From Escherichia phage vB_EcoM_112: 64,000 bases of DNA. Below the pieces are notes generated by a model. It was not told the origin of the DNA. It saw only the letters and a list, made by a program, of their open reading frames with translations, and did no database searches. Where the stretch lies: sequence record NC_024125.2. The stretch is one strand, 5' to 3'. Every line of letters begins with the position of its first letter. Positions within the stretch are counted from its first letter, which is position 1. Shown here piece by piece: positions 2,981 to 43,469 of this stretch. The translations under genes were made by a program, and so were the position numbers.

Positions 2981-3779
2981 TATACACCTCATAGAACTTT
3001 TCATCAGGAATCCAACCGCGTTTAAATTCATTAAATGCTCGGCCGAATAATTTTGAATTCACAGTTATATTATTAACTGATTTCCATTTAGCAACTCCCG
3101 TTCGTTTATAATGATCGGGGTCATATTTCGTGACGTACCATTCATATAAATTTGGTATTAATTTTACAGCCTCTGGATTTGTCGCTGATTTATTATACCA
3201 TGGTTTCGCTTTTTCAAGTTCAGCTGCTTTTGCAGTAGCAGCAACAGTATTTCCAATACCAACTAATTTTTCAGCTTTAATGCGTGGATCATTAACATGA
3301 AGACGAAAAACTTCGCCTTTTTCATTTTTAAAGCATGTCATGCCTTTAATTCCAGGAAGCTTAACACCTTTATTAACACCGCACCATTCCTTTGGGTTAA
3401 ATGATCCTTTAATTAATAAGGCGCATTTACCCGATTTAATACTTCTCATTAAAACTTTATCTTTCATAAAGTTTTTTGACCATTCAGATACTGCTCTTTG
3501 ATGGTAAATTCTAGCAATTTCATATAATTTACTAGAACGTAAATATTTTTCAGTGTTTAACATTCTATTCATCGCATATGCCATTTCACGATTACGATGA
3601 ATTTTATATAGTAGAAAATGTGCTAAAAAGTGTTCACGAAAAGTCAGTTTCACCAAATTTTCTTTATCATCAGAACCTCCCATTGATCTTGGAAGGATAT
3701 GATGAATTTCACCCTTAAATTTAGAAACGCGGGTTTTACCCCGCACTATTAAGTCATTATAGATTTTTTCGTAATTCAC
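2961..3779 (-). CDS. mobA: HNH homing endonuclease MobA, 272 aa as tracked
   Basis: HNH motif HHILPRSMGGSDDKENLVKLTFREHFLAH; sits between gene 39 and gene 60 and overlaps both; first codon is GTG with no in-frame ATG nearby. Confidence 0.75.
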   Translation of the reverse strand: MNYEKIYNDLIVRGKTRVSKFKGEIHHILPRSMGGSDDKENLVKLTFREHFLAHFLLYKIHRNREMAYAMNRMLNTEKYLRSSKLYEIARIYHQRAVSEWSKNFMKDKVLMRSIKSGKCALLIKGSFNPKEWCGVNKGVKLPGIKGMTCFKNEKGEVFRLHVNDPRIKAEKLVGIGNTVAATAKAAELEKAKPWYNKSATNPEAVKLIPNLYEWYVTKYDPDHYKRTGVAKWKSVNNITVNSKLFGRAFNEFKRGWIPDEKFYEVYNEICKN

Positions 3780-7179: not shown

Positions 7180-7209
7180 GTATATAGTTTTATGAAAAAA
7201 TTTTAAACT

Positions 7210-7707
7210 TTATGCACAGCGAGCTTTGCTATAGTGTTTAATCCAACTTTCAGGAATGACTTTGTATGTTCCTAAAAATACCGCGTTGTACAGCTTAACA
7301 CCATCTTCTACCCACTGATCGGTAATGTATGCGCACATAGCACGAGTACGGTGTTTTTGAACAACCCCTTCCTCATCTTCAGTAAATTCAAATTCATAAG
7401 GAGCAACGAACTTGATAGCTTGACCAAGTTTCCACTTAAAGTCTACACCTACATGCGAAGTATCAATCGTTTCAATTCCTTTAGCGGGAACAGCTTTCAA
7501 AAACGCAGGCTCAAGAAATTTCCATCGAACATAACCAAACTGGGGCTTAGACATTCCATCTTTAGCAATGATACGTACTTTTACTTCAGAATCTTCATCT
7601 TTAACACCGTGTTTAAGCTGAATGCTTACAACTTCAACCAATTTTCCTGCTGCTTTAGAACGGGATTTATCAGATACACGAGCAATTTCACCGATATTAA
7701 TATTCAT
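7210..7707 (-). CDS. hypothetical protein, 165 aa; paralog of 7786..8319
   Basis: Shares motif TDQWVEDGVKLYN with neighbour (TDQWIEDGVELLN). Confidence 0.6.
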   Translation of the reverse strand: MNINIGEIARVSDKSRSKAAGKLVEVVSIQLKHGVKDEDSEVKVRIIAKDGMSKPQFGYVRWKFLEPAFLKAVPAKGIETIDTSHVGVDFKWKLGQAIKFVAPYEFEFTEDEEGVVQKHRTRAMCAYITDQWVEDGVKLYNAVFLGTYKVIPESWIKHYSKARCA

Positions 7708-7753
7708 AATTATCTCTCACTTGTTAAAAAGATTTTATACTCCACAGGACCAC

Positions 7754-7783
7754 ATTATACTCTGGTCCCAAGAGTTTGTAAAC
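7754..7783 (-). promoter_or_regulatory. T4-type early promoter (GTTTAC-N18-TATAAT)
   Basis: Plus gtaaac 7778-7783 and attata 7754-7759. Confidence 0.6.
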
Positions 7784-7785
7784 TA

Positions 7786-8319
7786 TTAATTCAAAATAGC
7801 TACCACCGCACTACGAGGTACTACACTAAAATCACCTGCATGAACAACGTTCAGAAGTTCAACACCATCTTCAATCCACTGGTCTGTTACCCAACCACAG
7901 ACCGAAATAAATGGAGTCTTGATAGCTACCGCATGAGTTAGAAGGTCAGTAGGATCGCATTCTTGAAAGAGGATGAACTCTGCTTCATAAACCAGGATTT
8001 TCTCTATTTTGTTATTGTCTAAACGACGACCGTGGACAATATAAGATTTAGTAAACCATTTACTTTTTTCAAAATCTTCAACAATAAATTCACCTTCGCC
8101 AAAAACATCAGTCAGAGTTTTATGGCCGGAAATCAAGGCATTAGTTTTAATTTCAGTTTCAACCAGTTTGTAGGTTTTGCCGATTTCAATAGCGGTAGTC
8201 ATAGTAGGTTCCTTAATTTCCAGTGGTTTAACAGGGCATACATAAGTGCTTACAGCATCAAAATCAATCAGTTTAGCTACCGGATTTGGTATGTATTCAG
8301 GATTATAATTAAATTTCAT
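7786..8319 (-). CDS. hypothetical protein, 177 aa; paralog of 7210..7707
   Basis: ATG at 8317-8319. Confidence 0.6.
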   Translation of the reverse strand: MKFNYNPEYIPNPVAKLIDFDAVSTYVCPVKPLEIKEPTMTTAIEIGKTYKLVETEIKTNALISGHKTLTDVFGEGEFIVEDFEKSKWFTKSYIVHGRRLDNNKIEKILVYEAEFILFQECDPTDLLTHAVAIKTPFISVCGWVTDQWIEDGVELLNVVHAGDFSVVPRSAVVAILN

Positions 8320-16255: not shown

Positions 16256-16774
16256 TCAATAACCTCGGTCTTGACGTGCGAAGTTTTCGGCATTTTTCAG
16301 ATAATAAAGTTTAAAGATTTCTTCAGCCGACATTCCAAGAGCAATAAATTTATTCATGAAAAAGTGAAATTGGTCAATCAGTTCAAATTTAATTTCAAGC
16401 TGATCTTCAGGAGATAAATCTTGAATTTTCTTGGATTGCATTTCAGAATAACGTTTCTTCCAAGGTTTCCATACGGCAGAAGCTTCTTTTTCACCATTAC
16501 TCATACCACCAAGAGAAGTATATAGCTCGCGAGTTTCGTCTGCGATATAATCGTCTTGGTTTCGCAGCCAAGCAAGAACTTCTCCTGCAGTTTCAAGTGA
16601 ATCGGGATGACGATTTGTTTCTGGTTTATCATTAGCCAAACGAATCTGTAAATGCCGCTGCATGTCAAGCATAACCTGTAGTGGGTCAATATTGTGCATA
16701 ATATTCTCAGCATATGCACGATTTGCTTTATCAACACCTTCGATCAAATGAGCACATTCATTAAAGTGAGCCAT
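16256..16774 (-). CDS. 56: dCTP/dUTP pyrophosphatase gp56 (MazG-like), about 172 aa
   Basis: MAHFNECAHLIEG N-terminus from ATG at 16772-16774; EASAVW...ELIDQFHF motifs. Confidence 0.85.
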   Translation of the reverse strand: MAHFNECAHLIEGVDKANRAYAENIMHNIDPLQVMLDMQRHLQIRLANDKPETNRHPDSLETAGEVLAWLRNQDDYIADETRELYTSLGGMSNGEKEASAVWKPWKKRYSEMQSKKIQDLSPEDQLEIKFELIDQFHFFMNKFIALGMSAEEIFKLYYLKNAENFARQDRGY

Positions 16775-16834: not shown

Positions 16835-18174
<1,340 letters not shown>

Positions 18175-19659: not shown

Positions 19660-20286
19660 TTAACCTCTATTCATAAAAGCATTAAAAATTTGGTCATCAA
19701 TAGAAACATCTACTTTAGACTGTTTTTCTGATGGTAATTCATATCCACATATTACAATTTTGTGATCAATATCAAAATACACAGAAGCAATATGATTAAT
19801 GATGTTTTCAGTAAAGTCTAAATCAACATCAATATCTTTTTGACCACAGCCCAAAGGATAAATAATGCGAGTAATTCGATTATCTTTAACAAAGATTCCA
19901 CCGACATACTCTGTGCTGCGTTTAAAGTCTACACGCCAACGAAATGAAAAATATTCAGGCTCTTTATGAGCTCTGCTCATAGGACACAACGAGTAACTAG
20001 AATAAGAGATGTCAAATCCTACGCCTTCAATATGAGCCAAAGTATCATGATTAAACCAATTATAATCGTACGCCAAATCCATTAGATTATAATATGTAAA
20101 AGGCACCGGATTAACGTCATTAGTCACAAGCATGTAATTAGCAACTGCTATAATTTCATTGTTTTTAACGAATACAAACCGTGATTGATGCGAATGACCT
20201 GGACCCGCGTTTTCACGATTAATGATATAACACTGGGCACCTTTATATTTGTATGTATCTTTGCACTTGTGCATTTGATAGAGCAT
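19660..20286 (-). CDS. hypothetical protein, 208 aa
   Basis: ORF track; stop/start coupled with sp. Confidence 0.6.
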   Translation of the reverse strand: MLYQMHKCKDTYKYKGAQCYIINRENAGPGHSHQSRFVFVKNNEIIAVANYMLVTNDVNPVPFTYYNLMDLAYDYNWFNHDTLAHIEGVGFDISYSSYSLCPMSRAHKEPEYFSFRWRVDFKRSTEYVGGIFVKDNRITRIIYPLGCGQKDIDVDLDFTENIINHIASVYFDIDHKIVICGYELPSEKQSKVDVSIDDQIFNAFMNRG

Positions 20287-20579
20287 TATTCACCTACCAC
20301 TTCAGCGATGATATTTTTATTATTAAAGTTTTTATCGCAATACAGAACATAATTATACTGCATTACACCACCAGATTTAAGTTGTTTTTGCACTTCAGCT
20401 TTCATTTCAGGACGATCACGTTCAACGATATTCATAATATCCGCTTCAATTTGAATTTCAACTTCAGTCTGATCTGCAGTCATAGACCATTCGCACAAAT
20501 CTTTGTCATAACCCGCCATAGCAGGCTGAGCAGCGCAAGAAGATAAAGCAAAAATTGCAGCAAAGATAAATTTTTTCAT
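20286..20579 (-). CDS. sp: periplasmic protein Spackle, 97 aa
   Basis: Signal peptide MKKFIFAAIFALSSCAAQPAMA; length and synteny. Confidence 0.8.
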   Translation of the reverse strand: MKKFIFAAIFALSSCAAQPAMAGYDKDLCEWSMTADQTEVEIQIEADIMNIVERDRPEMKAEVQKQLKSGGVMQYNYVLYCDKNFNNKNIIAEVVGE

Positions 20580-20607
20580 GATAATCTCCTCAGTAGTTTA
20601 TGTTTAT

Positions 20608-20637
20608 ATAGTATCTCAATTTCCAATAAAAGTAAAC
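20608..20637 (-). promoter_or_regulatory. T4-type early promoter (GTTTAC-N18-TACTAT)
   Basis: Plus gtaaac 20632-20637, atagta 20608-20613. Confidence 0.55.
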
Positions 20638-20639
20638 AG

Positions 20640-20897
20640 TTATTTTAAAACTTCTGCATAATCACATGTTACAAACTGTTTCTCTAACTTGGCGATTTTA
20701 CGAAAGTATCTTTTGCATTGACGAATCTGTCGCTTTGTAGGGCGCACAGCAAACTTAATAAATTCCACTCGACCAAATGGAGGGCTTTCTTCTGCCGGAA
20801 TATCTAATACTAATTCCCACGTATCTGCAATAAGTGCTTTGAATTGAGTATTTTTCCTGACATTATACGGAGTAGGTTTAAATAAAACGATATGCAT
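20640..20897 (-). CDS. hypothetical protein, about 85 aa
   Basis: ATG at 20895-20897 with GAGGA RBS right after dmd stop; tracked longer form overlaps dmd. Confidence 0.5.
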   Translation of the reverse strand: MHIVLFKPTPYNVRKNTQFKALIADTWELVLDIPAEESPPFGRVEFIKFAVRPTKRQIRQCKRYFRKIAKLEKQFVTCDYAEVLK

Positions 20898-20898
20898 A

Positions 20899-21081
20899 TT
20901 ATCCTCGGCAATCCACTTCACATACCTTCTTGTCATCAATGAAAGCTTTAACTAGTGCTTTATTAACTTCAGCATATTGAGTAGTAGCCCATTGAACGTC
21001 ATCTTTCATCATTGTGATCTCTTTAGTAAACATGCTTTCGTTCTTAAACCACCCCATAAAAACTACCTTTACCAATTCCAT
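20899..21081 (-). CDS. dmd: Dmd, antitoxin against host RnlA/LsoA RNases, 60 aa
   Basis: 60-aa ORF MELVKVVFMGWFKNESMF directly downstream of gene 41; length and synteny. Confidence 0.8.
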   Translation of the reverse strand: MELVKVVFMGWFKNESMFTKEITMMKDDVQWATTQYAEVNKALVKAFIDDKKVCEVDCRG

Positions 21082-21110
21082 AACAATCTCCTCATTTAAC
21101 CAACAAGACT

Positions 21111-21140
21111 ACTATACCATAGTCTTGTCAGCTTGTAAAC
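21111..21140 (-). promoter_or_regulatory. T4-type early promoter (GTTTAC-N18-TATAGT), overlaps gene 41 stop
   Basis: Plus gtaaac 21135-21140, actata 21111-21116. Confidence 0.55.
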
Positions 21141-22567
21141 TAAAATTTTAATTCATTTGCCAAAGCATCTAACTGAGCTCGAGCGGATTCGTTTCTTTGA
21201 TAGCGATTCTGTTCAGCCTGAATTTGCTGTGAACCTGCTACTTCGTTCACTTCAGTTGGAGTAGAATCTTGTTCAATTTCTACCCATTTCTGATTTCCTT
21301 TTTGAACACCCATCAAAAACTTATTCCATTTATTCTTATCACCGTATCGTGATTTGATTTGCTTAATGAGTTGTTGTTCAGCAGCTGCTAGCTCCTCGGT
21401 TTCAATGACCGCAAGCATAAAATCAGCTGTTGCTGGAAGACCGGCAGATTCTGCAATATCGCTCATGTTAACATCAGAAGAATCCCAAGCTTGTTTACCA
21501 ACCTGTGCTGCAGTCCAAAGAACAGTTTCGGTTTCAACAGCAAGAGCACGTAATTCCTCTGCAATGGCTTTAACAGTTGTGTAACTATTTTCTGAGTAAA
21601 CTCTAATGCGGCAAGATTTACAAATACCCAGATAGTCGACAATAATGATTGTTGGAACAAAATTCTTCTTGAGCTTTAATTCATTTAAAAGTGATCGAAA
21701 TGTATTAGCGTCTGCTCCACCAGTAGGATATTGCTTAACGATTAAACGACCAAGGGTAGATTTCTCACGCCATTTTTCCATTTTTCCTTTATACTCAGCG
21801 TAAGAAATATGTCCATCATCAATGTCATCAAGAGAAACATCAAGCATGTTAGCGTCAATACGCTTAGCACAGACTTCTTCTGCCATTTCCATGGAGATAT
21901 AAAGAACGTTATGACCAAGCTGCAAATAATCTGCTGCTAATGAACAAAGTCCTAATGATTTACCAACGTTAACGCCAGCCATTAAAACGTTCAGTGTTCC
22001 AGTTTCAGCTCCGCCTTTAGTAATTTTGTTTAGAATTCTGAGTTTAAATGGAACCTTACGAGCTTTATTCATATAAGATAGCCAACGCGCTTCATAGTCA
22101 TCCATCCAATCATGACCAACGTAGCTATCAAATGAAATTGATAATGCTTGGCGCATGATGTCAGGAATAGCACCTACATCTGGCATTTTCTTATTTCGTT
22201 TTTCCGGAGGAAGCTCAGCATTAGTTTGAATTTCAATTATTTTAGACGTAGCATTAAACATCGCCCTTTGCTGAACATATTTTTCTGTTTCTTTTACTAA
22301 CCAGCTATGGTCTTCTGGAGAATCGGCTAGTTTCGAAATAAGTGTTTTTACACCAGAATATTCTGTTTCAGTAAATGAACTATTTTCTAATGCAACATTT
22401 AACGCATTAATAGATGGAACGCTATGGTACTCATTAACATGAGATTTAATTAATTTGAATGTATTTTTAGCTGGACCACTTTCAAAATATTCTGAATCCA
22501 TATATGGCCAAACTTTTGAAAAATAAGCTTGATCAAATATGAGATGAGAAAGAATAATTTCTACCAC
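21140..22567 (-). CDS. 41: replicative DNA helicase gp41 (DnaB-like), 475 aa; GTG initiation
   Basis: Walker A GVNVGKS, DnaB-family layout; first codon GTG at 22565-22567 with AAGGAG RBS. Confidence 0.9.
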   Translation of the reverse strand: MVEIILSHLIFDQAYFSKVWPYMDSEYFESGPAKNTFKLIKSHVNEYHSVPSINALNVALENSSFTETEYSGVKTLISKLADSPEDHSWLVKETEKYVQQRAMFNATSKIIEIQTNAELPPEKRNKKMPDVGAIPDIMRQALSISFDSYVGHDWMDDYEARWLSYMNKARKVPFKLRILNKITKGGAETGTLNVLMAGVNVGKSLGLCSLAADYLQLGHNVLYISMEMAEEVCAKRIDANMLDVSLDDIDDGHISYAEYKGKMEKWREKSTLGRLIVKQYPTGGADANTFRSLLNELKLKKNFVPTIIIVDYLGICKSCRIRVYSENSYTTVKAIAEELRALAVETETVLWTAAQVGKQAWDSSDVNMSDIAESAGLPATADFMLAVIETEELAAAEQQLIKQIKSRYGDKNKWNKFLMGVQKGNQKWVEIEQDSTPTEVNEVAGSQQIQAEQNRYQRNESARAQLDALANELKF

Positions 22568-22576
22568 ACTTACTCC

Positions 22577-22921
22577 TTAAAAGAATTTAAATTTTTTCTT
22601 TGACCTTTTATTAAATGCATCTTGCAGTTGCATTGTAATACATTTTTCTACATGAGGAGCTAACTCAGCTTTTCTTTCTTGGTCAAGAACAGCAAAGTCC
22701 ATTACGACTTTTCCATCAACCCAATCTAATTTTGTCACATACACAATGTGTGTAGAACCATCTTCTAGTTTAATGACAATCTCCTGGATAACATTTTCCA
22801 TAGCGGATTTAATTATCTTAAGAGACTCATTAAAAAGACGTTCTTTTCTTTCTTCTTCCCCCTCCGAAGAGGGGGATTCATCGATAATTTCTAGATCTAA
22901 ATCTAAATCATCTTTATTCAT
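22577..22921 (-). CDS. 40: gp40 head-assembly accessory protein, 114 aa
   Basis: ATG at 22919-22921 gives 114 aa; synteny between 41 and uvsX. Confidence 0.7.
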   Translation of the reverse strand: MNKDDLDLDLEIIDESPSSEGEEERKERLFNESLKIIKSAMENVIQEIVIKLEDGSTHIVYVTKLDWVDGKVVMDFAVLDQERKAELAPHVEKCITMQLQDAFNKRSKKKFKFF

Positions 22922-24095
22922 TAAATTCTTCCATATCACTTAACTGTTCGAGGTCAGTTTCTAAATCAGCAGCTGATTTACTTTTACTTTCTGGAGATTT
23001 AAATTTTTCAACCTTTGAGTTAATCAATTCATCAACTTCAGCTTCAACAATTTCATTACTATCAATAGCACCTAACTGATAAGCACGTTTAATAGCATCT
23101 CGGAATGGTTGATGCTTAAATAAAGGACCCCAGAATGTAGTGCAGTTAGTATCTTTTGCACGCCAAGATTTTTCTTCGCGAATCATCTCGCCGGTTTCTT
23201 CGTCAAGAAATTCACGAGCATACCAACCATTCTTAGGTTTTACTACAAATCCTAATTCTAGAGCCATATCTAACAATCCAGAATAAGGATCGATACCACC
23301 GTCAAATTTAACATCAATAAAGAATTTACTTTTTTCTTTAACGGTACGAGATTTTTCTACATTTAGAACAAATTGATACCCCTGAAGATCAGAACCATCT
23401 TTAATCTGGCGTTTACCGATAATGAATACGGTATCAGCCGAATACATTACGCCTGTACCACCTGTCATCACGGTTTTACTAAACATTTCAATTGTTTCAA
23501 TTGTATGGTTAACCGCAACGCACGGAATATTTTTAATGCTAAAATAAGGAGTAACAATACGGAATAATGACTTCAGTGATTTAGCACGAGTCATATCTGC
23601 CACAGATTTTTCATTCAAGGCATCTTCCGTTTCTTTCTTGGAAGCCATATTACCAATTGAGTCGATGAATACAATAACTTTTTCACCGCGCTCAATAGCT
23701 TCAAGCTGATTCACCATATCAATTTTCAGCTGTTCAACTGATTGAATTGGCGTATGAATTACACGTTCCGGGTCAACTCCCATGGATCGCAAATAAGCTG
23801 GAGTAATACCAAATTCGCTATCATAGAATAGACAAACCGCGTCAGGATATTTGTTCAAATATGCCGCAACCATAGTCAAAGACATATTTGATTTAAAGTG
23901 TTTAGAAGGCCCTGCGAAAATAGTTAAACCAGACTGCATACCGCCATCAATCGCACCAGAAATAGCAATATTAAGCATTGGAATTTTTGTACGAATTACA
24001 TCCTTTTCATTAAAGAATTTAGATGTAGTCAGTTCAGCAGTCATTTTAGAAGTGGAAGCTTTAATCAAACGGGATTTTAAATCTGCAATAGACAT
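22914..24095 (-). CDS. uvsX: UvsX recombinase (RecA-like), 393 aa
   Basis: Walker A GPSKHFKS; RecA fold layout; ATG at 24093-24095. Confidence 0.9.
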   Translation of the reverse strand: MSIADLKSRLIKASTSKMTAELTTSKFFNEKDVIRTKIPMLNIAISGAIDGGMQSGLTIFAGPSKHFKSNMSLTMVAAYLNKYPDAVCLFYDSEFGITPAYLRSMGVDPERVIHTPIQSVEQLKIDMVNQLEAIERGEKVIVFIDSIGNMASKKETEDALNEKSVADMTRAKSLKSLFRIVTPYFSIKNIPCVAVNHTIETIEMFSKTVMTGGTGVMYSADTVFIIGKRQIKDGSDLQGYQFVLNVEKSRTVKEKSKFFIDVKFDGGIDPYSGLLDMALELGFVVKPKNGWYAREFLDEETGEMIREEKSWRAKDTNCTTFWGPLFKHQPFRDAIKRAYQLGAIDSNEIVEAEVDELINSKVEKFKSPESKSKSAADLETDLEQLSDMEEFNE

Positions 24096-24148
24096 TCATT
24101 TTTTCCATAGGCATCATTATATTTTCCTCACTGGTTAAAGATAGAGTA

Positions 24149-24172
24149 ATTATAACACAATAAATTTAGGCA
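24149..24172 (-). promoter_or_regulatory. candidate MotA-dependent middle promoter upstream of uvsX
   Basis: Transcript TGCCTAAA, 12 nt, TATAAT. Confidence 0.45.
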
Positions 24173-25015
24173 TTAATCAACTGCTATTGGATGAATAGCA
24201 TTAAACTTATGAAATGCTTCTGATTTTTCTTTACGCGAAACGCACATGCGAAGAACCTTTAATGGCTCGTCTTCTTCACCCAACGATTTTCGTTTTTCAA
24301 TATTAGAAGTTTTCCAACGAGCTTGCTCTGGAAACTCTCTATTGATTTGCTCAAGCGCTCTATTATGTTTAGAATTACTACGAATTGAACTACACCCGCC
24401 AGGAGCTTGTGCTTTTCCAGATACAACTAGATATTTGAACAAGGCCAAATGCGGATAACCTTGATTAATTAAATTGAGAAATGCATACATATCTTCGCAT
24501 AAATCAATTTTTCCATACCCAATTTGTTCTGTCGTAAGTTTTCCGAGGTCATACCATGTATTCGTGAATCCATATGAATTTTCACGATAATTACCCCAAG
24601 ATGAAGTAATTTTAAAAATTGGTAGACGAGCATGACCGTGATAATACCCGCAATCCATGGCATCTTCAACATATTGAATCAATTCATAGAACTGTTCACG
24701 AGTTAATTGATTAATTTTATCTACGCGCCGTTTATCGTCTCTCTTTCGTATTGAACTCATACGGATAGTAGTATCATCGTCAATCATCCAGATTCGTTGA
24801 CCTGCATACATATCAGTAATTGCTTTACGAGTACCGGCAATTCCATTAACATCATCAGGAATAGTTACAATTTTAGCTCTAGACCCATAGGCATCATAAT
24901 AAGCTTTTTCTTCGTGTTCACGCACTATAATATGCGGTTCATAATCAGTCGGAAACATATCAAGGGCAGAAACTGCCCCGACACGTTGATAACTTGGAAT
25001 TACGAATTGAATCAT
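24173..25015 (-). CDS. glycosyltransferase (DxD, GT-A-like), 280 aa, at the locus where T4 has beta-gt; possibly beta-glucosyl-HMC-alpha-glucosyltransferase
   Basis: MIDDD DxD motif; ATG at 25013-25015 overlaps gene 42 stop; not alignable to my recollection of T4 beta-gt (351 aa). Confidence 0.6.
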   Translation of the reverse strand: MIQFVIPSYQRVGAVSALDMFPTDYEPHIIVREHEEKAYYDAYGSRAKIVTIPDDVNGIAGTRKAITDMYAGQRIWMIDDDTTIRMSSIRKRDDKRRVDKINQLTREQFYELIQYVEDAMDCGYYHGHARLPIFKITSSWGNYRENSYGFTNTWYDLGKLTTEQIGYGKIDLCEDMYAFLNLINQGYPHLALFKYLVVSGKAQAPGGCSSIRSNSKHNRALEQINREFPEQARWKTSNIEKRKSLGEEDEPLKVLRMCVSRKEKSEAFHKFNAIHPIAVD

Positions 25016-25752
25016 TTCCACTCACCTTTATAGTCTTTTTTCACAATATGAGTTTCGCCAGTATTCCACCAATGATCAACCAAATAAAAATGACGAGAAT
25101 ATACATGAAGACTTCCAACATTCCATATAATAGAACCTGCTTTATACTGACGAGTTGAATCGCCTGCATTCAAATCAGATACTAATTTATCTAATACGTA
25201 TTTTTGCCATGCATAATCATTACGGAATCCGAAGACCACGTCATTTGAGCGCATGCTTACTACCGCATTGACTTTCTTATCACGAATCAGGTACTGTACT
25301 GTATTAGTACACATGAAATCTGACATACCATCTTTATTGTAGTCAAACTGCATAGATGGACGAGTATAAATCATGATACCACGTCGAGAATCAGGATTTT
25401 GACCAAGTTCAGCTAAACACATATCATACTGGGCATAGTTATCTTCTGACCAAATAGCCCAACCATAATTCGAGTTAATTTCGCCTTTAGAAGATGCTAC
25501 CTGCTGCCAAATCTTTGGTGTTTCACCTGGAATATCTTTAACAAACAAACTCTTAGATTTATACCATTCAAGTTCACGCTGAATGTATTCATCATTAAGA
25601 GCGCCAAAAATAAACGGTTCATCTGCTACAAATGATGCGCCAATAATTTCAATAGTTTTAACACCAGTTTTATCAACTACGAAATCTTTTTCTTTTAATG
25701 CAAGCCCCAAATGAAGACGGATTTCTTCAACTGTCATAGAGTCACTAATCAT
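25012..25752 (-). CDS. 42: dCMP hydroxymethylase gp42, 246 aa
   Basis: Thymidylate-synthase-like fold motifs; length. Confidence 0.9.
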   Translation of the reverse strand: MISDSMTVEEIRLHLGLALKEKDFVVDKTGVKTIEIIGASFVADEPFIFGALNDEYIQRELEWYKSKSLFVKDIPGETPKIWQQVASSKGEINSNYGWAIWSEDNYAQYDMCLAELGQNPDSRRGIMIYTRPSMQFDYNKDGMSDFMCTNTVQYLIRDKKVNAVVSMRSNDVVFGFRNDYAWQKYVLDKLVSDLNAGDSTRQYKAGSIIWNVGSLHVYSRHFYLVDHWWNTGETHIVKKDYKGEWK

Positions 25753-25905
25753 TTAAACCTCAATTGATACATTCATATTTAACTTGTAACAGTAATAAAC
25801 TCCAACCTAAAATAATAGTTGGAATCATAAGAGGAACCGTTACACTATAGTATATACTTATTATAATCATCAAGATTAAAAGCAACACTGCTATAATTTT
25901 GCTTT

Positions 25906-26157
25906 TCATTCCTTCTCTCTGATGATAATTACCTGATTTGGTTGTGCAGACTTTTTAGTTTCACCCGCAATTGACCAAATAAATGTAATAAACCAACCAA
26001 TAATTGACCAGTTAAACAGTAAAGATGTGAAAAAGATTCCTACTGTCGATTTTGACCCACGCATCAAAGCAATAAACCATGGAAGCATGTATATAATAAT
26101 AGCCAACACGCCTGAAACTAAAACCATAAAAATTGAACCTGCTACTAAAGTTTCCAT
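25906..26157 (-). CDS. imm: Imm superinfection immunity membrane protein, 83 aa
   Basis: Two hydrophobic helices; length and synteny. Confidence 0.8.
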   Translation of the reverse strand: METLVAGSIFMVLVSGVLAIIIYMLPWFIALMRGSKSTVGIFFTSLLFNWSIIGWFITFIWSIAGETKKSAQPNQVIIIREKE

Positions 26158-26164
26158 GTTTTCC

Positions 26165-26545
26165 TCACTTAGTCAAATTTTTTACGCATGAATTATAAGA
26201 ATTCACTACATACTCCATCGGAGCATTTTTACCAGTACGCCATTGGTAATTATTAGCCCAATTAGCCCAAATTTCGGCGCAGTAGTTTTCAATTTTTTCT
26301 TCGTGTGTAATTACATCAGAATTACGATATGCTTGAGCAGATTCATCTGGACGAATAGCTTCGTCAAAATTCGCCTGCATTTGTTCGACTGTTTGCTTTG
26401 GAGCTTCTTTATAACACTTGACATTAGGATTATAAAATTTGCTTGAACAGTTTACAATTTTTCCTACATCAGACTGATTTACTACCGGTCCTTGAGCTAC
26501 ACAACCAGTAAGACCTAATGCAATAACCAAAATAGCGATTTTCAT
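26165..26545 (-). CDS. lipoprotein, 126 aa
   Basis: Signal peptide with lipobox LTGC. Confidence 0.6.
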   Translation of the reverse strand: MKIAILVIALGLTGCVAQGPVVNQSDVGKIVNCSSKFYNPNVKCYKEAPKQTVEQMQANFDEAIRPDESAQAYRNSDVITHEEKIENYCAEIWANWANNYQWRTGKNAPMEYVVNSYNSCVKNLTK

Positions 26546-26555
26546 AATAATTTCC

Positions 26556-26792
26556 TCAAATGCAAGTAGTAATTACTCCAGTAGTGCTTATGCAGGTATT
26601 ACCCATTTGCACACCTAAAGATCCATTTGTATTCACATGAAGATTATCATCAATTTTAACTGATATTTTACCATTAGTGTGAATAACGGTGCTAGATTCA
26701 ATCACAGGTTGAGTATCATTTTCAACACTAACAAATGGAACTGCTGCTAATGCAACTAAACAAACTGCTAAGCATCCCATAACAATTTTCAT
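26556..26792 (-). CDS. secreted/membrane small protein, about 78 aa
   Basis: ATG at 26790-26792 after shared leader GGAGAATGAA; signal-peptide-like N-terminus. Confidence 0.55.
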   Translation of the reverse strand: MKIVMGCLAVCLVALAAVPFVSVENDTQPVIESSTVIHTNGKISVKIDDNLHVNTNGSLGVQMGNTCISTTGVITTCI

Positions 26793-26829
26793 TTCATTCT
26801 CCAAATCCGTATCAGTAGTTGATAGTTGT

Positions 26830-26859
26830 ATAGTACCATAGAAGAACAGGGATGTAAAC
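26830..26859 (-). promoter_or_regulatory. T4-type early promoter within a repeated promoter-leader cassette
   Basis: Plus gtaaac 26854-26859, atagta 26830-26835. Confidence 0.55.
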
Positions 26860-26947
26860 AGTTTTGTGAAAAAATTTTTAGGGAATCCAAAGGGTCCAGA
26901 ATCATCTCTTTTTCATAAGTATAGATTTATATTACTTGTATGAAAAA

Positions 26948-26963
26948 GGGACCTGGAGGTCCC
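26948..26963 (-). terminator. terminator-like hairpin after gene 43
   Basis: GGGACC-UCCA-GGUCCC on transcript followed by UUUUUCAU. Confidence 0.6.
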
Positions 26964-26976
26964 TAGATTTATTCTA

Positions 26977-29673
26977 TCAGCCAAACAGGAAGTCTAACGA
27001 AGCTTTTTCTTCATAGTCCATGCCAGCCGATTCACACATACCCGCAAGCGGTTTAACAAACGATTTTTGGAACAAAGTTGAGTGGTCAATCCAAGATAGC
27101 ACATCAGAACGAATTTCTTTTGGAAGTTCTGTACCCGATGGCCAAGCAATGCACTTGTCACCAAATGGATTTCCTTCACGTAATGGAAGAACCATTACTT
27201 TATTTCCATCCAAAATTGGAGCTACACCCAGACCACTAACAGCTCGACGATAAGTTAGCACACCGCGAATATGGAACGGGCATTTAAATCCTGGCCAACC
27301 TTTATCATCATATTTCGCTATATCGTTCGCAGTTTTTACTTCAGCAATAACTTTATAGTCAAGTTGACGATATTCTTTCTCGAAGTTCTTGTAGTATTCT
27401 TGGACAGACTCTTCACCTTCTTGAAGAATACGACGAATACTTTCTTCGAGAGCTTCTTGCACTGCTTTTGGTGTTGAACTCTGCTGAGTTTCCATACCCA
27501 TGATTTTTAGATGCGGTTCAGCAAATCGTTTATCTTCCATATCATAAACGTTCAGAGCATAACGCTTTTTCGCTTTCCAAAATCCACCAACACCCTTTGA
27601 ACCAAGTGGAGGGCAAGAAATAGCTTCACGGTCCATATGCATCAGATGCTCGCGGTTATTCATATAATCACATAACTCACGATATGCAACATCAATCATA
27701 GGTTCCATCTTTTTCTTACCGAACTGATTCATGAATTCAACTAAATCGTTCTGCTCTTTGAATCGGTCAAGACCAACTTTTTCAATAACTTTATCTACAC
27801 AAACATATACCGAATCAGTATCACCTGCTGCGATGAAATCTTCACCATTAGTTCCGCATACTTTATTCAGATATTCATTAATTTTACGAGCAATCCACTG
27901 AATACCAACTTGGCCGAAAATTGTGATAGCAGTAGCATTTCGCAAATCATAGTAACGAAAATGAATATTACCAAGAGCACCGTAAAGACTGTTAATAAGA
28001 ATTTTACGGTTCAGCTGATTTGTGTTAGCAAGTGTAGCTGCTTTTTCACATTCTTCAATCAAACTATTGAGAACAGATTCGGTGTAATTCGATAGTTCAT
28101 TTAAGAAATCATCACTGAACTTAACATATCGTTCAACTTCAGGTTTAGTTGAACAAGACCCTGCGCCTTTCATAATAATCTTTTTAATAGCTTCGGCATT
28201 CATTTCTTCAGCGAACATTTTCTTTTTCCAATCTTTACGCTGGAAAAATACTTTAGCGATTTCCTTTGGAATGATACCTTCTTGATGCTTATCATACATC
28301 CATCCATTCGGAGAACAAGAATATTCATCACTCGGTTTAGGAGCTGTTCCTGCGATATATTCATGAATTGGATGAACTTTAAACTGACCACGAATAGTCT
28401 CAGGACTAATGTTAACCTGACGAATAATGCTCGGATACAGAGACGTCAAGTCAAAACTCATAATATATCGACGAGCAATTGGTTTAGGTTCAAATACAAA
28501 TGCACCCGGAAAACTTTGTTTAACGTGCGAACCTTGTTGAGGAATAACCTTATGTTCACCTTTCAATGAGTTAAAAATAATAGCATCCCAAGTTTTAATA
28601 GGACTCATTACACCAGAAAAAGGCATTTTAGCATAATAAGACATACTTAAAACTAGATCGATAAACCCGCGAATTTTATCAATTGCTTGAACTGATTCTA
28701 CGTCAATGATGTTATAACTAATGTATCGTTGATGATTAGTCTCACGAAGTTTATTAATAGGACCATCATACGGTAATTTACCTTTTTTGGTTTCATGTTG
28801 AGCAACTGATTCCAAAGAGAATGACGGCAAATTAGTAAAAGCGAATTTCTTGTACAAATCTAAATAATCAAGAATAGATACGCCATCAATAGAATAAATT
28901 TCTTTGCTACCGTACATATTTTGAATTAGTTTAGATTTTACTCGACCGATTGGAGAGAAGCGTTTCATACTACGTTCACCGAGAACCATTTTAACACGAT
29001 TCATGATATACGGAACGTCAAATCCCTCAATATTCCAACCGGTAAAAATAGCAGGTCGTTTCTGTTCCCAGAGATTAATATATTCCATGAGCATATCACG
29101 CTCATTATCAAATGGCATATAAATTACTCGGTCAAGAATTTCTTGAGGAACTTCATCACCACCTTCACAGTCAAGCTTAGCAGCTAACTTTGCATCCCAT
29201 TTTGATACTGAACCGTACATTGAATTCAAAAGGTCGAAAACATAAAAACGATCATCAATTGAATCATAATGAGTGATAGCATCAATTTCATATTCAGCTT
29301 TCATTGGATCAGGAAATTTATCACCAGTAACCTCAATGTCACAGTTAGCTACACGAACAAATTTTCGGTCATAAACAATTTCTGAACCATACGTATCACT
29401 GATATAAGCGAGTTTAAAATCGTTCATACCAAGAGCTTCGAGACCGATGTCTTCCATTCGCTTCATCCAATCTCGAGCATCTTTCATTGATGGAAATTTT
29501 TGAGGAGCGCAATTTTTACCATAGATGTCTTTGTACTTTGACTCTTCCTTACAATGCCTAAACATAGTCGGAAGATATTCTACTTCACGAGTACGTTCCT
29601 TTCCGTTTTCATCAATATAACGTTCAACAATGTTATTTCCGACTGTTTCGATAGAGATATAAAATTCTTTCAT
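26977..29673 (-). CDS. 43: DNA polymerase gp43 (family B), 898 aa
   Basis: Exo and pol motifs (FDIE, YGDTDS); length. Confidence 0.95.
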   Translation of the reverse strand: MKEFYISIETVGNNIVERYIDENGKERTREVEYLPTMFRHCKEESKYKDIYGKNCAPQKFPSMKDARDWMKRMEDIGLEALGMNDFKLAYISDTYGSEIVYDRKFVRVANCDIEVTGDKFPDPMKAEYEIDAITHYDSIDDRFYVFDLLNSMYGSVSKWDAKLAAKLDCEGGDEVPQEILDRVIYMPFDNERDMLMEYINLWEQKRPAIFTGWNIEGFDVPYIMNRVKMVLGERSMKRFSPIGRVKSKLIQNMYGSKEIYSIDGVSILDYLDLYKKFAFTNLPSFSLESVAQHETKKGKLPYDGPINKLRETNHQRYISYNIIDVESVQAIDKIRGFIDLVLSMSYYAKMPFSGVMSPIKTWDAIIFNSLKGEHKVIPQQGSHVKQSFPGAFVFEPKPIARRYIMSFDLTSLYPSIIRQVNISPETIRGQFKVHPIHEYIAGTAPKPSDEYSCSPNGWMYDKHQEGIIPKEIAKVFFQRKDWKKKMFAEEMNAEAIKKIIMKGAGSCSTKPEVERYVKFSDDFLNELSNYTESVLNSLIEECEKAATLANTNQLNRKILINSLYGALGNIHFRYYDLRNATAITIFGQVGIQWIARKINEYLNKVCGTNGEDFIAAGDTDSVYVCVDKVIEKVGLDRFKEQNDLVEFMNQFGKKKMEPMIDVAYRELCDYMNNREHLMHMDREAISCPPLGSKGVGGFWKAKKRYALNVYDMEDKRFAEPHLKIMGMETQQSSTPKAVQEALEESIRRILQEGEESVQEYYKNFEKEYRQLDYKVIAEVKTANDIAKYDDKGWPGFKCPFHIRGVLTYRRAVSGLGVAPILDGNKVMVLPLREGNPFGDKCIAWPSGTELPKEIRSDVLSWIDHSTLFQKSFVKPLAGMCESAGMDYEEKASLDFLFG

Positions 29674-29691
29674 AGATATTCCTTAGTTTAT

Positions 29692-29709
29692 AGCCCGAGT
29701 TATTAGGCT
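29692..29709 (-). promoter_or_regulatory. gene 43 translational operator hairpin (gp43 autoregulation)
   Basis: Transcript AGCCU-AAUAACUC-GGGCU immediately upstream of the gene 43 RBS. Confidence 0.75.
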
Positions 29710-29733
29710 CTTGATATATTATACTCCAATTAA

Positions 29734-29747
29734 GGGGCCGAAGCCCC
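29734..29747 (-). terminator. CUUCGG tetraloop hairpin between regA-distal ORF and gene 43
   Basis: GGGGC-UUCG-GCCCC on transcript. Confidence 0.5.
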
Positions 29748-29751
29748 TTGC

Positions 29752-29973
29752 TTAAATTAGTACTATTTGTCGGGTGAAAATTGTCAATCCATCTGCATTA
29801 ATTGACTTAACGACTGCAGTAAAGTGTTTTTGTTCTGGGTGAACTAATTTTTGAAATTCTACCTGAAATTTTAGTTGAAGGTTTTCTGGTAAATCGAAAA
29901 GTGTTTCTGTTGCAGAAAGATTATATTTTTCTTTAAGAGACGCCATGTATTCTTGCGGAGTTATAGCAGTCAT
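29752..29973 (-). CDS. hypothetical protein, about 73 aa, between regA and gene 43
   Basis: ATG at 29971-29973 one nt after regA stop; weak RBS. Confidence 0.4.
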   Translation of the reverse strand: MTAITPQEYMASLKEKYNLSATETLFDLPENLQLKFQVEFQKLVHPEQKHFTAVVKSINADGLTIFTRQIVLI

Positions 29974-29974
29974 A

Positions 29975-30343
29975 TTAATTACCAATCGTATATTTAGGAA
30001 CGAGTTTCCATTCATGTTTTTGTTTAAAAGAAATAACTCGGAAGTTATTAGTTAAATCTTTCATAAAAGTTCTTTGACCAGGAACGATTTCAATCAGTCC
30101 CCAATCTTCTAATAGCCATGCAATCGAATCACGACGAACTTCATCTTCTTCTGTCATTTCAACCTGGCGACCATCCATACGAAGCATTTCTTTAAAATGA
30201 ACGATATAGTATAGTCCTTTTTTCTGAAGAATATGACAGGACTGATACAGAACTTTATCTTTATTATTAGCAATTCCCATACGAGTCAAAGTTTCTTTTA
30301 CTTTCAGAAAATCTTCAGGTTTTTTAAGAGTAATTTCAATCAT
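29975..30343 (-). CDS. regA: RegA translational repressor, 122 aa
   Basis: Length, N-terminus MIEITLKKPEDF, synteny after gene 62. Confidence 0.9.
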   Translation of the reverse strand: MIEITLKKPEDFLKVKETLTRMGIANNKDKVLYQSCHILQKKGLYYIVHFKEMLRMDGRQVEMTEEDEVRRDSIAWLLEDWGLIEIVPGQRTFMKDLTNNFRVISFKQKHEWKLVPKYTIGN

Positions 30344-33061: not shown

Positions 33062-33250
33062 TTAGTCATAATAATCAGTAACAGTCCAAGCTTCATTTCT
33101 ATTGGACATTATTTTTGTATATTCTGCTTTAAATGCATTCCTAAGCATAGATTCAGTAACTATATGCTCTTCATTAGAAAAATTATTTCTCAGAATATAT
33201 CGTTTTATTTCAGGAATAGTTAATAGATGCTGTCCGGTTGAATATTCCAT
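33062..33250 (-). CDS. hypothetical protein, 62 aa
   Basis: ORF track. Confidence 0.5.
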   Translation of the reverse strand: MEYSTGQHLLTIPEIKRYILRNNFSNEEHIVTESMLRNAFKAEYTKIMSNRNEAWTVTDYYD

Positions 33251-33305
33251 GTTTTTCCTCCATAGAGATTATACTCTAATAAATTAAAGCATAATCTCTT
33301 ATAAA

Positions 33306-34988
33306 TTAAACCATTACAGTAAATCGACCAACTTTCTTCATTTGAAGATGCTGACCGTATGCTTGCGGGTCATGGTCTCTATGTGAAATAACAAAAACGT
33401 TAGTATTTTTTAAACTATCTAAAATAGTTGAAATAGCTTTTACACCTTCAACGTCGGTCGCTGAATCAAAAACTTCATCAAGAATTAATGTGTTTATTTT
33501 AACACCTGAAACCTTTTCAGCAATATCACGCCAAGTAAATAAAAGAGCAATATCAATTCGTGCTTTTTCACCTTGACTGAATGAAGCATAACTAAAATCT
33601 TCACGACCACGGGATTTAATTGTCTCATTAAATTCTTCATCTAATGTAAACACATAATCCGCTTCCATTATTTTAAGATAATGGTTAATCTGCTTATTAA
33701 ATAATGGAATGTACTTTTTAATAATAGCACCTTTAATACCAGAATCTTTGAGCATATCAGTCAAAATTCCTCGGTGGTATTTTTCCATTACTAAATTAGT
33801 TTTTGTCTTAACAATTTTATCAAGTTCTTCTTGAAGCAGTGCTATTTCATCAGCATGGTCAATAAACTCAGAAGATGCTTTTTCTATAGCCGCTTTAACC
33901 TTTTTAGCTTTATCTACTGCTGCGATCAGAGATTGCTTTTTATTGCGAATATCATTTGCCAACGACTGTTGGGTTTTAATATTATCTCGGTATTCATCAA
34001 CAAGAACTTTTAAATTATCACGATGTGTTGAAAGCTGTTCAAACGAATGCGTACATTCAGAAACTTTATCTTTAATTTTAGAAACAACTTTATCACCGGA
34101 ACTCAATTGTGACAAACAGGTTGGACATAATCCACCTTCGTGATACATATTAATGACTTTATTATACGAGTCAATTTTTGATTTAATTAAAACTGCTTCT
34201 TGACCGATTTTATTAAATGCATCAGTCGGGTCTTCATCTAAAACAATATTAACTAATCTTTCATTAGCTTCTTCTATTTCCGATTTTAGCGTTCTAGCTT
34301 CTTTTGCCAAATCATCATACATATTTTGCAGACGAGTAAGATTGTCACCCGTTAATTTTTTCTGGCGTTCAACGTTATCATTATATATTTTAATTTGTTG
34401 GATAATACTATCTTTTTTAACGTCAAGCACTTGGTTTTGTGAATTTAATTCACGTATTAGTGCTTTATTAAGCTTATCCATTTCAGCTAATGTTCCTACC
34501 TCAAGCAGGTCTTCCACAAGCTTTCTTCGCGCAGGGGTCGACAAACCCATGAAAGGGGTATACCCTGCTGTACCAAGGACAACAATCTGCTTGAAACTGG
34601 CATATGACATTCCGATAAGCTGTTCAAATTCTGCTTGGAAATCTTTACTGCTGGCAGATTCATTAAGACGTGTACCGTTAACGGTGATTTCAAAAACGTT
34701 CGGTTTTTGTCCTCTTTTGATATAGTACTTTTTCTCATCATATTCCATCCACAGTTCAACTAAAAGTTCTTTCTTATTTGTGCTGTTTATTAATTGGCCT
34801 TTCTTTACATCACGAAATGGCTTGCCAAAAAGCCCAAATGTGATGGCTTCTAACATAGTAGACTTACCACCGCCATTTCGTCCAGTAATAAGAGTTTTTT
34901 GAACCTTATCTAATTGAATGTCAATAGGATTTCCACCTACTGACATTATATTTTGATACCTAACTCGGTTTAGTTTAAAATTCTTCAC
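33306..34988 (-). CDS. 46: recombination nuclease gp46 (SbcC/Rad50-like ATPase), 560 aa; GTG initiation
   Basis: Walker A GRNGGGKS, coiled-coil middle, signature/Walker B near C-terminus; first codon GTG with AAGGAA RBS. Confidence 0.9.
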   Translation of the reverse strand: MKNFKLNRVRYQNIMSVGGNPIDIQLDKVQKTLITGRNGGGKSTMLEAITFGLFGKPFRDVKKGQLINSTNKKELLVELWMEYDEKKYYIKRGQKPNVFEITVNGTRLNESASSKDFQAEFEQLIGMSYASFKQIVVLGTAGYTPFMGLSTPARRKLVEDLLEVGTLAEMDKLNKALIRELNSQNQVLDVKKDSIIQQIKIYNDNVERQKKLTGDNLTRLQNMYDDLAKEARTLKSEIEEANERLVNIVLDEDPTDAFNKIGQEAVLIKSKIDSYNKVINMYHEGGLCPTCLSQLSSGDKVVSKIKDKVSECTHSFEQLSTHRDNLKVLVDEYRDNIKTQQSLANDIRNKKQSLIAAVDKAKKVKAAIEKASSEFIDHADEIALLQEELDKIVKTKTNLVMEKYHRGILTDMLKDSGIKGAIIKKYIPLFNKQINHYLKIMEADYVFTLDEEFNETIKSRGREDFSYASFSQGEKARIDIALLFTWRDIAEKVSGVKINTLILDEVFDSATDVEGVKAISTILDSLKNTNVFVISHRDHDPQAYGQHLQMKKVGRFTVMV

Positions 34989-36610: not shown

Positions 36611-36630
36611 TAAAGGGCCGAAGCCCTTTA
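36611..36630 (-). terminator. CUUCGG tetraloop hairpin overlapping the alpha-gt stop
   Basis: AAAGGGC-UUCG-GCCCUUU on transcript. Confidence 0.5.
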
Positions 36631-37830
36631 TTTTGTAATAATGTCAAACTGTTCTTTAAAGCAGAAGCTTGAATCTTGATGTTGATACAAAAATTCATAT
36701 GCTTTTTCTCGCTCACGGTCATAAAGAGCTCGGTCAGATGACAGTTCTTTAATACGTTCAAACGTTGATTCCATATCATTTTCATCAAACCAAATGATAC
36801 CGCTATCATGCGAGGTCAAAGGAGTATTATCAACACGGAATTTTAAATTTTCGCCAGTAGATTTCCAAAATACCGGAATTGTTCCACATGCACCAAGCTC
36901 GAGATGAGTATATTCTAAAGAACGTTGCAGATATTTTTTATCCAACTTACTCAACTGATAACCAAATCCGGATTTACTCATGCGTTCAAGCATTTCGCTA
37001 TTTACATAACGGTCAAGAATTTGCGTTGGCAAATTAGGAGCAATTTTAATTTGGTCTACTTGATGAAGACGATAATACTCGTATGGAATTCCTTTTTCTT
37101 TAATAGGAATGAACGCTGGAGAACGTTCCAGACCTTCCATAATAGTACTTAGTCCTGCAGGTTTAAGATGTTTTTCGTGAAAATCAAACATCTGGTAAAA
37201 ACCTTTCCATGTAGTCGTACGACCAATCCAACGGTTGATATTCATGTTAATTTCAGAAACATCTTTCCAGTAGGTTGATCGAACCTTCGCAATATCCATA
37301 GGAGGCTGAAAATTATATACTGTAGGTGCTTCTTCAATATCATCAAACAAAGAAACTGTTTCAGGATACCATTCTTTCATCAGAACTTTATTAAAATCAC
37401 CATTATCAGAATGGCTAAAAATAACATCAGCTCGACGAACAGTTTCTTCTAATCCCAAATTTCGACGCAAAGAAAGAGAGGAATGGTCATGTTGATAAAC
37501 CACAACACGAACCGAAGGTTTAATGTTATCAATAATTTTTTTATAGTTATTAATAGTATCTTCTTCAACTGAAGTAGCAGGAACTGAATTGATAATTAGA
37601 ATATCACAATCATTTACCAGCTTAAGTGTTTTATCGTATTCTTTTGCCAATAAAACCGGAATTGAAAATGATTTATAATCATGTGCACAGTTACGAGTAA
37701 ATGATTTATCTTTAGCATAAACCAAAGTTACTTCATGACCATTTTTAATAAACCAATCACGTTGCTCAAGAGAAAATTTAGTTACACCGCAACCTTCAAG
37801 ACCTCGAGCCATAAAAATACATACTTTCAT
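36628..37830 (-). CDS. agt: alpha-glucosyltransferase (hmC DNA alpha-glucosylation), 400 aa
   Basis: Length and N-terminus MKVCIFMARGLEGCGVTKF as I recall for T4 alpha-gt. Confidence 0.85.
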   Translation of the reverse strand: MKVCIFMARGLEGCGVTKFSLEQRDWFIKNGHEVTLVYAKDKSFTRNCAHDYKSFSIPVLLAKEYDKTLKLVNDCDILIINSVPATSVEEDTINNYKKIIDNIKPSVRVVVYQHDHSSLSLRRNLGLEETVRRADVIFSHSDNGDFNKVLMKEWYPETVSLFDDIEEAPTVYNFQPPMDIAKVRSTYWKDVSEINMNINRWIGRTTTWKGFYQMFDFHEKHLKPAGLSTIMEGLERSPAFIPIKEKGIPYEYYRLHQVDQIKIAPNLPTQILDRYVNSEMLERMSKSGFGYQLSKLDKKYLQRSLEYTHLELGACGTIPVFWKSTGENLKFRVDNTPLTSHDSGIIWFDENDMESTFERIKELSSDRALYDREREKAYEFLYQHQDSSFCFKEQFDIITK

Positions 37831-42642: not shown

Positions 42643-43469
42643 AATAATATCCAATTTTTCCAAGCTTCATCAGTAGAATTACAGCATTTTAGTATAAGAT
42701 GTCTAGAAACTTTTATGGCATTTGAGCACTTTTTAATTGAATCATATTTAATACCGTCAACTGAAACGGTTTTGCTAGTTGGAGAAATTTTTCCATACAT
42801 TGGATTTTTTGAACCAACTTGAAGTCCTTTTAAAGCTTTTGAAAGCTTTTGTCTAGATTCCAATGACATGGGAGAATTCTTTTTACCTTCAATAATTCGC
42901 TTGCGATGAAGTTCGCGTTCTTCTTCACTCAAAGAATTGTAATATTTTTTAACACCGTTTGATATAGATAATTTATCTTTCTCAGACCGCTCTCCAGCTA
43001 ATTTACTTCTAACATCTTTTCGCTTCATAGCTATGCTTACGGCTTTATTTAAATTTGCTTGATGCTCTGGCGTACGTTTATATTTCTTTAAAGCACGTGA
43101 AATAGCTATTTTAGTTTCTTCTGTTCTCTTTTTACCTTTATTTGCTAAACTATTTTTGCGGCGATGTTCAAGTGTCTGTTCATAGGCAGTTCCACCTTTT
43201 CCACCAGGTTTAATATTATATGTATTTTCTTTTAGACAATACTCTTCGGTTACAAGTTCAGCTTCTTTATCATACATTTGTTTTTCATTATCAAAAACAT
43301 GTAAAATTTCTTTATTAAAATTTTTTCTACCATATTTTAATAAAGCGGCACGAATCAATGTTCCTGACCCCATATAACCGTCATTTATGTTATCGGTGCT
43401 ATGCGCACCGATATATTCCTTTGAATTAATTATATTTGTTATTTTATAAATTATATAATACCTATGCAT
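42639..43469 (-). mobile_element. free-standing GIY-YIG homing endonuclease ORF, 276 aa
   Basis: N-terminal YIIYKITN...KEYIGAH motif; basic C-terminal DNA-binding half; overlaps nrdD stop and nrdG start. Confidence 0.75.

Follow-up and report, generated by a model that had tools for sequence, protein, structure and literature searches.

The gene lying between gene 42 and uvsX in the 64-kb stretch of phage DNA analysed here (hereafter the window) is, with very high probability, a T2/T6-type beta-glucosyl-HMC-alpha-glucosyltransferase gene (ggt, also called ba-gt and, in Pfam, TAGT). We assign it to this type because its product shares 272 of its 280 residues (97% in BLASTP, without gaps and at an equal length of 280 aa) with the T2 ggt product and 277 of 280 (99%) with the TAGT of phage vB_Eco_EL (OZ034682.1), and also because of its matches to PHROG 842 and PF20691, its synteny with T2 and T6, the presence of alpha-gt and absence of beta-gt in the window, and the invariant DDD residues of its glycosyltransferase motif. 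The occurrence of the gene in 477 phage records, many annotated with the ggt name, the published chemistry and genetics of T2 and T6 and the HPLC/MS analyses of Tequatrovirus phages argue for the same assignment, and we found nothing that contradicts it. The gene, its product, fold and distribution have already been published, so that no new biology is added here. Overall, the window belongs to a T4-like phage of the genus Tequatrovirus and, over 24 kb, shares about 98% identity with phages of the vB_EcoM-PM series. The coordinates of the gene and associated features are listed in Table 1.

Table 1. Position and strand in the window of ggt, its neighbours and related features
Feature	Coordinates	Strand	Basis
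ggt (ba-gt, TAGT), very probable beta-glucosyl-HMC-alpha-glucosyltransferase, 280 aa, intact	24173..25015	-	ORF and homologues, PF20691, PHROG 842
MIDDD motif, residues 77-81	24773..24787	-	Translation; DDD (79-81) is the putative metal- and UDP-sugar-binding DxD of a GT-A enzyme
ATGA overlap of gene 42 stop and ggt start	25012..25015	-	Minus-strand sequence GAGTGGAAATGATTCAA and coordinates of both ORFs
gene 42, dCMP hydroxymethylase, for synthesis of the hmC precursor	25012..25752	-	97% aa identity to T4 gp42; Pfam thymidylate synthase family
uvsX, downstream neighbour of ggt	22914..24095	-	90.5% aa identity to T4 UvsX; ORF list
alpha-gt, DNA alpha-glucosyltransferase, would make the alpha-glucosyl-hmC acceptor for ggt	36628..37830	-	91.5% aa identity to T4
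Cassette without DNA homology to T4, in place of T4 segA and b-gt	24084..25029		blastn breakpoints

Identity of the glucosyltransferase gene

The minus-strand open reading frame spans 24173..25021 and would encode 282 aa if counted from its GTG, whereas the ATG at 25015, two codons into it, yields the 280-aa protein and coincides with the start codon given in the T2 annotation and in those of RefSeq relatives. This ATG belongs to the overlap with the stop codon of gene 42, a junction also present as annotated in T2, which suggests that the two genes may be translationally coupled. The slot between gene 42 and uvsX is the same as in T2 and T6, as seen from the comparison of their annotations, and the partner gene, alpha-gt, is also the same. 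The protein matches PHROG 842 (beta-glucosyl-HMC-alpha-glucosyltransferase) at 2.4e-88 over residues 1-275 and Pfam PF20691 (TET-associated glycosyltransferase, TAGT) at E = 9e-10, with 39.3 bits, above the gathering threshold of 27.5 bits, and covering profile positions 2-205 of 205; all but one of the full-length homologues found carry this domain as well. NCBIfam contains no model matching this protein or alpha-gt, and a sequence search of the PDB retrieved no relative with a solved structure, with chance matches alone (E of about 2). At the DNA level, the gene is 100% identical to that of several Tequatrovirus isolates (fFiEco06, fHoEco02, JK08, and PYps35T), several of them annotated as beta-glucosyl-HMC-alpha-glucosyltransferase.

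The sequence-only reading had described a 280-aa MIDDD glycosyltransferase between uvsX and gene 42 that could not be aligned to the 351-aa T4 beta-gt, had noted that alpha-gt was retained, and had ventured a T2/T6-type enzyme as a guess. The ORF map, the ATG start and the MIDDD at residues 77-81 agree with this description, and the BLAST comparison with T2 ggt and the PHROG match support the guess. The alpha-gt product is 91.5% identical to that of T4 over 400 aa and matches Pfam PF11440 at 1.8e-237. As for T4 beta-gt, BLASTP detected no similarity between it and the 280-aa protein (best E = 4.1), tblastn over the whole 64-kb window gave no match at E <= 1, and PF09198, which T4 beta-gt matches at 9.4e-98, gave no match to the 280-aa product at a cutoff as permissive as E <= 1.

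Compared with T2 ggt, the window protein has eight substitutions (R11, I30, V50, I89, K95, R97, I101, and P251), none of them in family-invariant columns, and no functional difference from the T2 enzyme can be argued from the sequence. Only three residues differ from EL (I30V, A202S, and Q203H). EL, a Tequatrovirus of the Durham Collection whose DNA modifications have been measured, has been placed in a group of phages that possess a Dam-like gene, as does the window (16838..17614); this is only a correlation.

In 1993, Winkler and Rueger reportedly cloned the ggt genes of T2 and T6 and determined their sequences (Nucleic Acids Res 21:1500, cited in PMC11946311). Compared with the window and T2, ggt is damaged in both public T6 genome records. 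In MH550421 (4138-4980 of the stretch compared), codon 10 is changed from CAG to TAG and the CDS is annotated from M20, with 261 aa, and in AP018814 (2135-2974 of the stretch compared) an in-frame deletion of 3 nt removes one Asp of the invariant MIDDD. Since T6 is the classical high-gentiobiosyl phage, we read these lesions as either mutations of laboratory stocks or sequencing errors in the GAT repeat.

Motif and predicted fold

In an alignment of ten family sequences, with identities down to 31% in the alignment (28% by BLASTP), D79, D80, and D81 are invariant, as are about 40 other positions. An AlphaFold2 model built from this alignment (mean pLDDT 72, pTM 0.75), of moderate confidence overall and with pLDDT values that are low for residues 126-140 and 203-210, predicts a GT-A fold with a single Rossmann-like nucleotide-sugar binding domain. 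The DDD residues directly follow the strand formed by residues 74-78, as in the GT-A core, and have a putative metal-binding or catalytic role. The PF20691 family has likewise been described as having a GT-A fold and as sister to CAZy GT2 (PMC13216743). In contrast with what the name of this family says, the window phage makes hmC by means of the thymidylate-synthase-like hydroxymethylase of gene 42, not of a TET/JBP dioxygenase, and the label "TET-associated" is therefore unsuited to this phage.

Exchange relative to T4 and distribution among phages

In blastn comparisons of the window with T4 positions 20000-30000, homology ends at window position 24083 (T4 23555) and restarts at window position 25030 (T4 25497). 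The 946 bp enclosed by these breakpoints, which consist of ggt and a short spacer before uvsX, stand against about 1.94 kb in T4 that contain the homing endonuclease gene segA and b-gt. The G+C content of ggt (0.368) and that of its neighbours (0.359) are alike. Whereas segA adjoins b-gt in T4, where it is found between uvsX and b-gt (T4 23570..24235), no such gene exists at this position of the window, and segA is missing from 24084..24172. Elsewhere in the window, we detected a SegA-like ORF fragment (43125..43463, 49% identity over 115 aa) and a MobB-like ORF (3459..3779, 42% over 113 aa). In the close relative fFiEco06, a homing endonuclease gene of 717 bp, lying on the opposite strand, separates genes 46 and 45.2; this mobile gene is missing in the window, which has just about 70 bp there (33247..33320, compared with the fFiEco06 stretch 7208..7995). 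A gene for a gp56-like dCTPase (nucleoside triphosphate pyrophosphohydrolase; 16259..16774, minus strand) is 71.5% identical to the fFiEco06 copy while the adjoining Dam gene is 100% identical to that of fFiEco06; this contrast marks an abrupt mosaic junction inside the region of the hmC pathway genes.

A search of a phage collection retrieved 477 records matching ggt, nearly all with at least 90% nucleotide identity and many of them named beta-glucosyl-HMC-alpha-glucosyltransferase, versus 29 records for T4 beta-gt DNA, mostly T4 and its laboratory derivatives. A 2026 paper considers the combination of alpha-GT and TAGT as the common state and the alpha-GT and beta-GT pair of T4 as a rarity, and TAGT has been reported at a position syntenic with T4 beta-GT (PMC13390438). 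Given these record numbers and the published syntenic TAGT, the combination of alpha-gt and TAGT predominates in Tequatrovirus, with ggt as the rule in the genus and T4 as the exception. On this point the sequence-only reading, which had implied that the gene content of this phage was unusual, has to be corrected. Its proposal of a DNA carrying alpha-glucosyl and gentiobiosyl hmC does find support in homologues, namely in the 99% identity to the EL enzyme and the HPLC/MS analysis of EL DNA (PMC13390438).

Predicted pathway and sugar pattern of the DNA

By analogy with its homologues, we infer the following chemistry for this phage. The gene 42 product would make hm-dCMP, leading to the replacement of C by hmC in the phage DNA, and alpha-gt would then glucosylate part of the hmC residues in alpha linkage. 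The ggt product, a predicted GT-A enzyme of the DxD type, would use UDP-glucose to attach a second glucose by a beta-1,6 linkage to alpha-glucosyl-hmC, generating gentiobiosyl-hmC, most likely through an inverting mechanism since a beta product arises from UDP-alpha-glucose. With no beta-gt in the 64-kb window, the hmC residues beyond the reach of alpha-gt would stay unglucosylated, and the virion DNA would be expected to contain hmC, alpha-glucosyl-hmC, and gentiobiosyl-hmC but no beta-glucosyl-hmC.

Several published observations on relatives bear on this pattern. The gentiobiosyl-hmC of T2 and T6 is made by ba-gt, with a beta-1,6-linked second glucose (PMC6024577; bioRxiv 10.64898/2026.02.25.707755), and T6 mutants with a deletion of ba-gt lose it (PMC11078745; bioRxiv 10.64898/2026.02.25.707755). 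In Tequatrovirus phages endowed with alpha-GT and TAGT but no beta-GT, HPLC/MS revealed 5-hmdC and its alpha-glucosyl and alpha-gentiobiosyl forms, the beta-glucosyl form being absent; EL, BGP, and Geo showed hmC, alpha-glucosyl, and gentiobiosyl forms in a ratio of approximately 1:2:2 (with about 40% gentiobiosyl in EL), and seven other phages about one-third hmC to two-thirds gentiobiosyl (PMC13390438). Gentiobiosyl-hmC amounts to about 5% in T2 versus about 72% in T6 (PMC6024577; bioRxiv 10.64898/2026.02.25.707755) and, as the enzymes of these two phages are near-identical, the fraction of gentiobiosylated hmC is not predictable from sequence. The window allele, common to EL, differs from both T2 and T6 at V50, I89, K95, R97, and I101. 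It is conceivable, though we regard it as unlikely, that the allele helps to determine the extent to which alpha-glucosyl-hmC becomes gentiobiosyl-hmC. If this were true, the long-noted spread from about 5% (T2) through about 40% (EL-type) to about 70% (T6) would reside in a few residues of the enzyme, and neither the expression level nor the behaviour of alpha-gt would be its source.

Alternative readings

T4 beta-gt takes glucose from UDP-glucose and attaches it by a beta linkage. It resembles the ggt type in both respects and occupies the same genomic slot as the window gene, but it is unrelated to it in sequence and fold and its acceptor is hmC itself, not alpha-glucosyl-hmC. The shared syntenic slot could be accounted for if the window protein were a highly diverged T4 beta-gt that still adds a single beta-glucose directly to hmC, and the two enzymes are easily confused by name, the RB55 (KM607002) and RB59 (KM607003) records annotating genes 100% identical to T4 b-gt as "beta-glucosyl-HMC-alpha-glucosyl-transferase", a wrong name that could misdirect the transfer of annotations between two unrelated enzymes. 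We give practically no credence to such a divergence, as the two proteins have no sequence similarity (the best BLASTP E value being the 4.1 given above) and belong to separate Pfam families, PF09198 for T4 beta-gt and PF20691 only for the window protein. The GT-A fold predicted here also differs from the GT-B fold of T4 beta-gt (PMC13216743), and phages with a TAGT gene and without beta-gt have no beta-glucosyl-hmC by HPLC/MS (PMC13390438). Taken together, the BLASTP, Pfam, and fold evidence rules out a diverged T4 beta-gt.

Within the TAGT family, the enzyme might use another donor or acceptor, acting directly on hmC or transferring a sugar other than glucose, which would result in a pattern unlike those of T2, T6, and EL. 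TAGT homologues do occur together with alpha-GT, with beta-GT or alone, for which distinct kinds have been suggested (PMC13216743), and the PF20691 match is moderate (39 bits), which points to a broad family. Such a change of specificity is nevertheless very unlikely because the window protein is nearly identical to enzymes with measured products, with 3 differences out of 280 residues from EL and 8 out of 280 from T2, none in the invariant alignment columns. It is likewise very unlikely that the gene is present yet inactive or irrelevant, in which case the DNA would have alpha-glucosylation only, like that of T6 without ba-gt. In favour of this possibility, T2 makes only about 5% gentiobiosyl-hmC despite its intact gene, and the lesions in both public T6 records indicate that the gene can be damaged in laboratory stocks. 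Against it, the window copy shows neither truncation nor damage to the DDD motif, and several independent isolates carry the gene with 100% identical DNA. In addition, the overlap of its start codon with the stop codon of gene 42, which is essential, suggests co-expression, and the 99%-identical EL enzyme goes together with about 40% gentiobiosyl-hmC.

Implications for host defence

Which host defences are effective against a T-even phage depends on the sugar pattern of its hmC. The Brig1 glycosylase removes alpha-glucosyl-hmC, whereas T6 DNA, with mainly gentiobiosyl-hmC, is not degraded by it, and T6 lacking ba-gt is more sensitive to this enzyme (PMC11078745). The BapA hydrolase is unable to strip gentiobiose or to release glucose from gentiobiosyl-hmC, and Brig3 attacks the approximately 25% of unglucosylated hmC remaining in phages without beta-gt (bioRxiv 10.64898/2026.02.25.707755); the deletion of ba-gt in T6 affects both the Brig1 and the BapA/Brig3 defences (PMC11078745; bioRxiv 10.64898/2026.02.25.707755). 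GmrSD targets both glucosyl stereoisomers as well as the gentiobiosyl form (PMC13216743). Recognition of the alpha-gt and TAGT gene pair in this phage is thus useful for the prediction of its host range and for phage-therapy work.

Other sequence features around ggt

A scan of 23900..26200 with promoter and terminator consensus sequences showed no excess over shuffled sequence, with 13 promoter-like sites versus 10.3 and 1 terminator-like site versus 0.9. At 24963..24979 on the minus strand, within the first 55 nt of the reading frame of ggt, a G+C-rich hairpin (GGGGCAGTTTCTGCCCT) precedes a T-rich run. With a single terminator-like site against a chance expectation of 0.9, this 5' hairpin gives no sign of function; its sequence (GGGGCAGTTTCTGCCC) and the next 8 nt are identical in T2 and T6. 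In phage fPS-2, a terminator has been annotated downstream of ggt, and the scan of the window did not reproduce it. An ORF of 82 aa whose N-terminus is hydrophobic (26556..26804, minus strand) is flanked by imm.1 and gene 43 and situated in a stretch without T4 homology (26545..26779 of the window), and T2 has an ORF of similar size, annotated "RB51ORF048", at the corresponding place.
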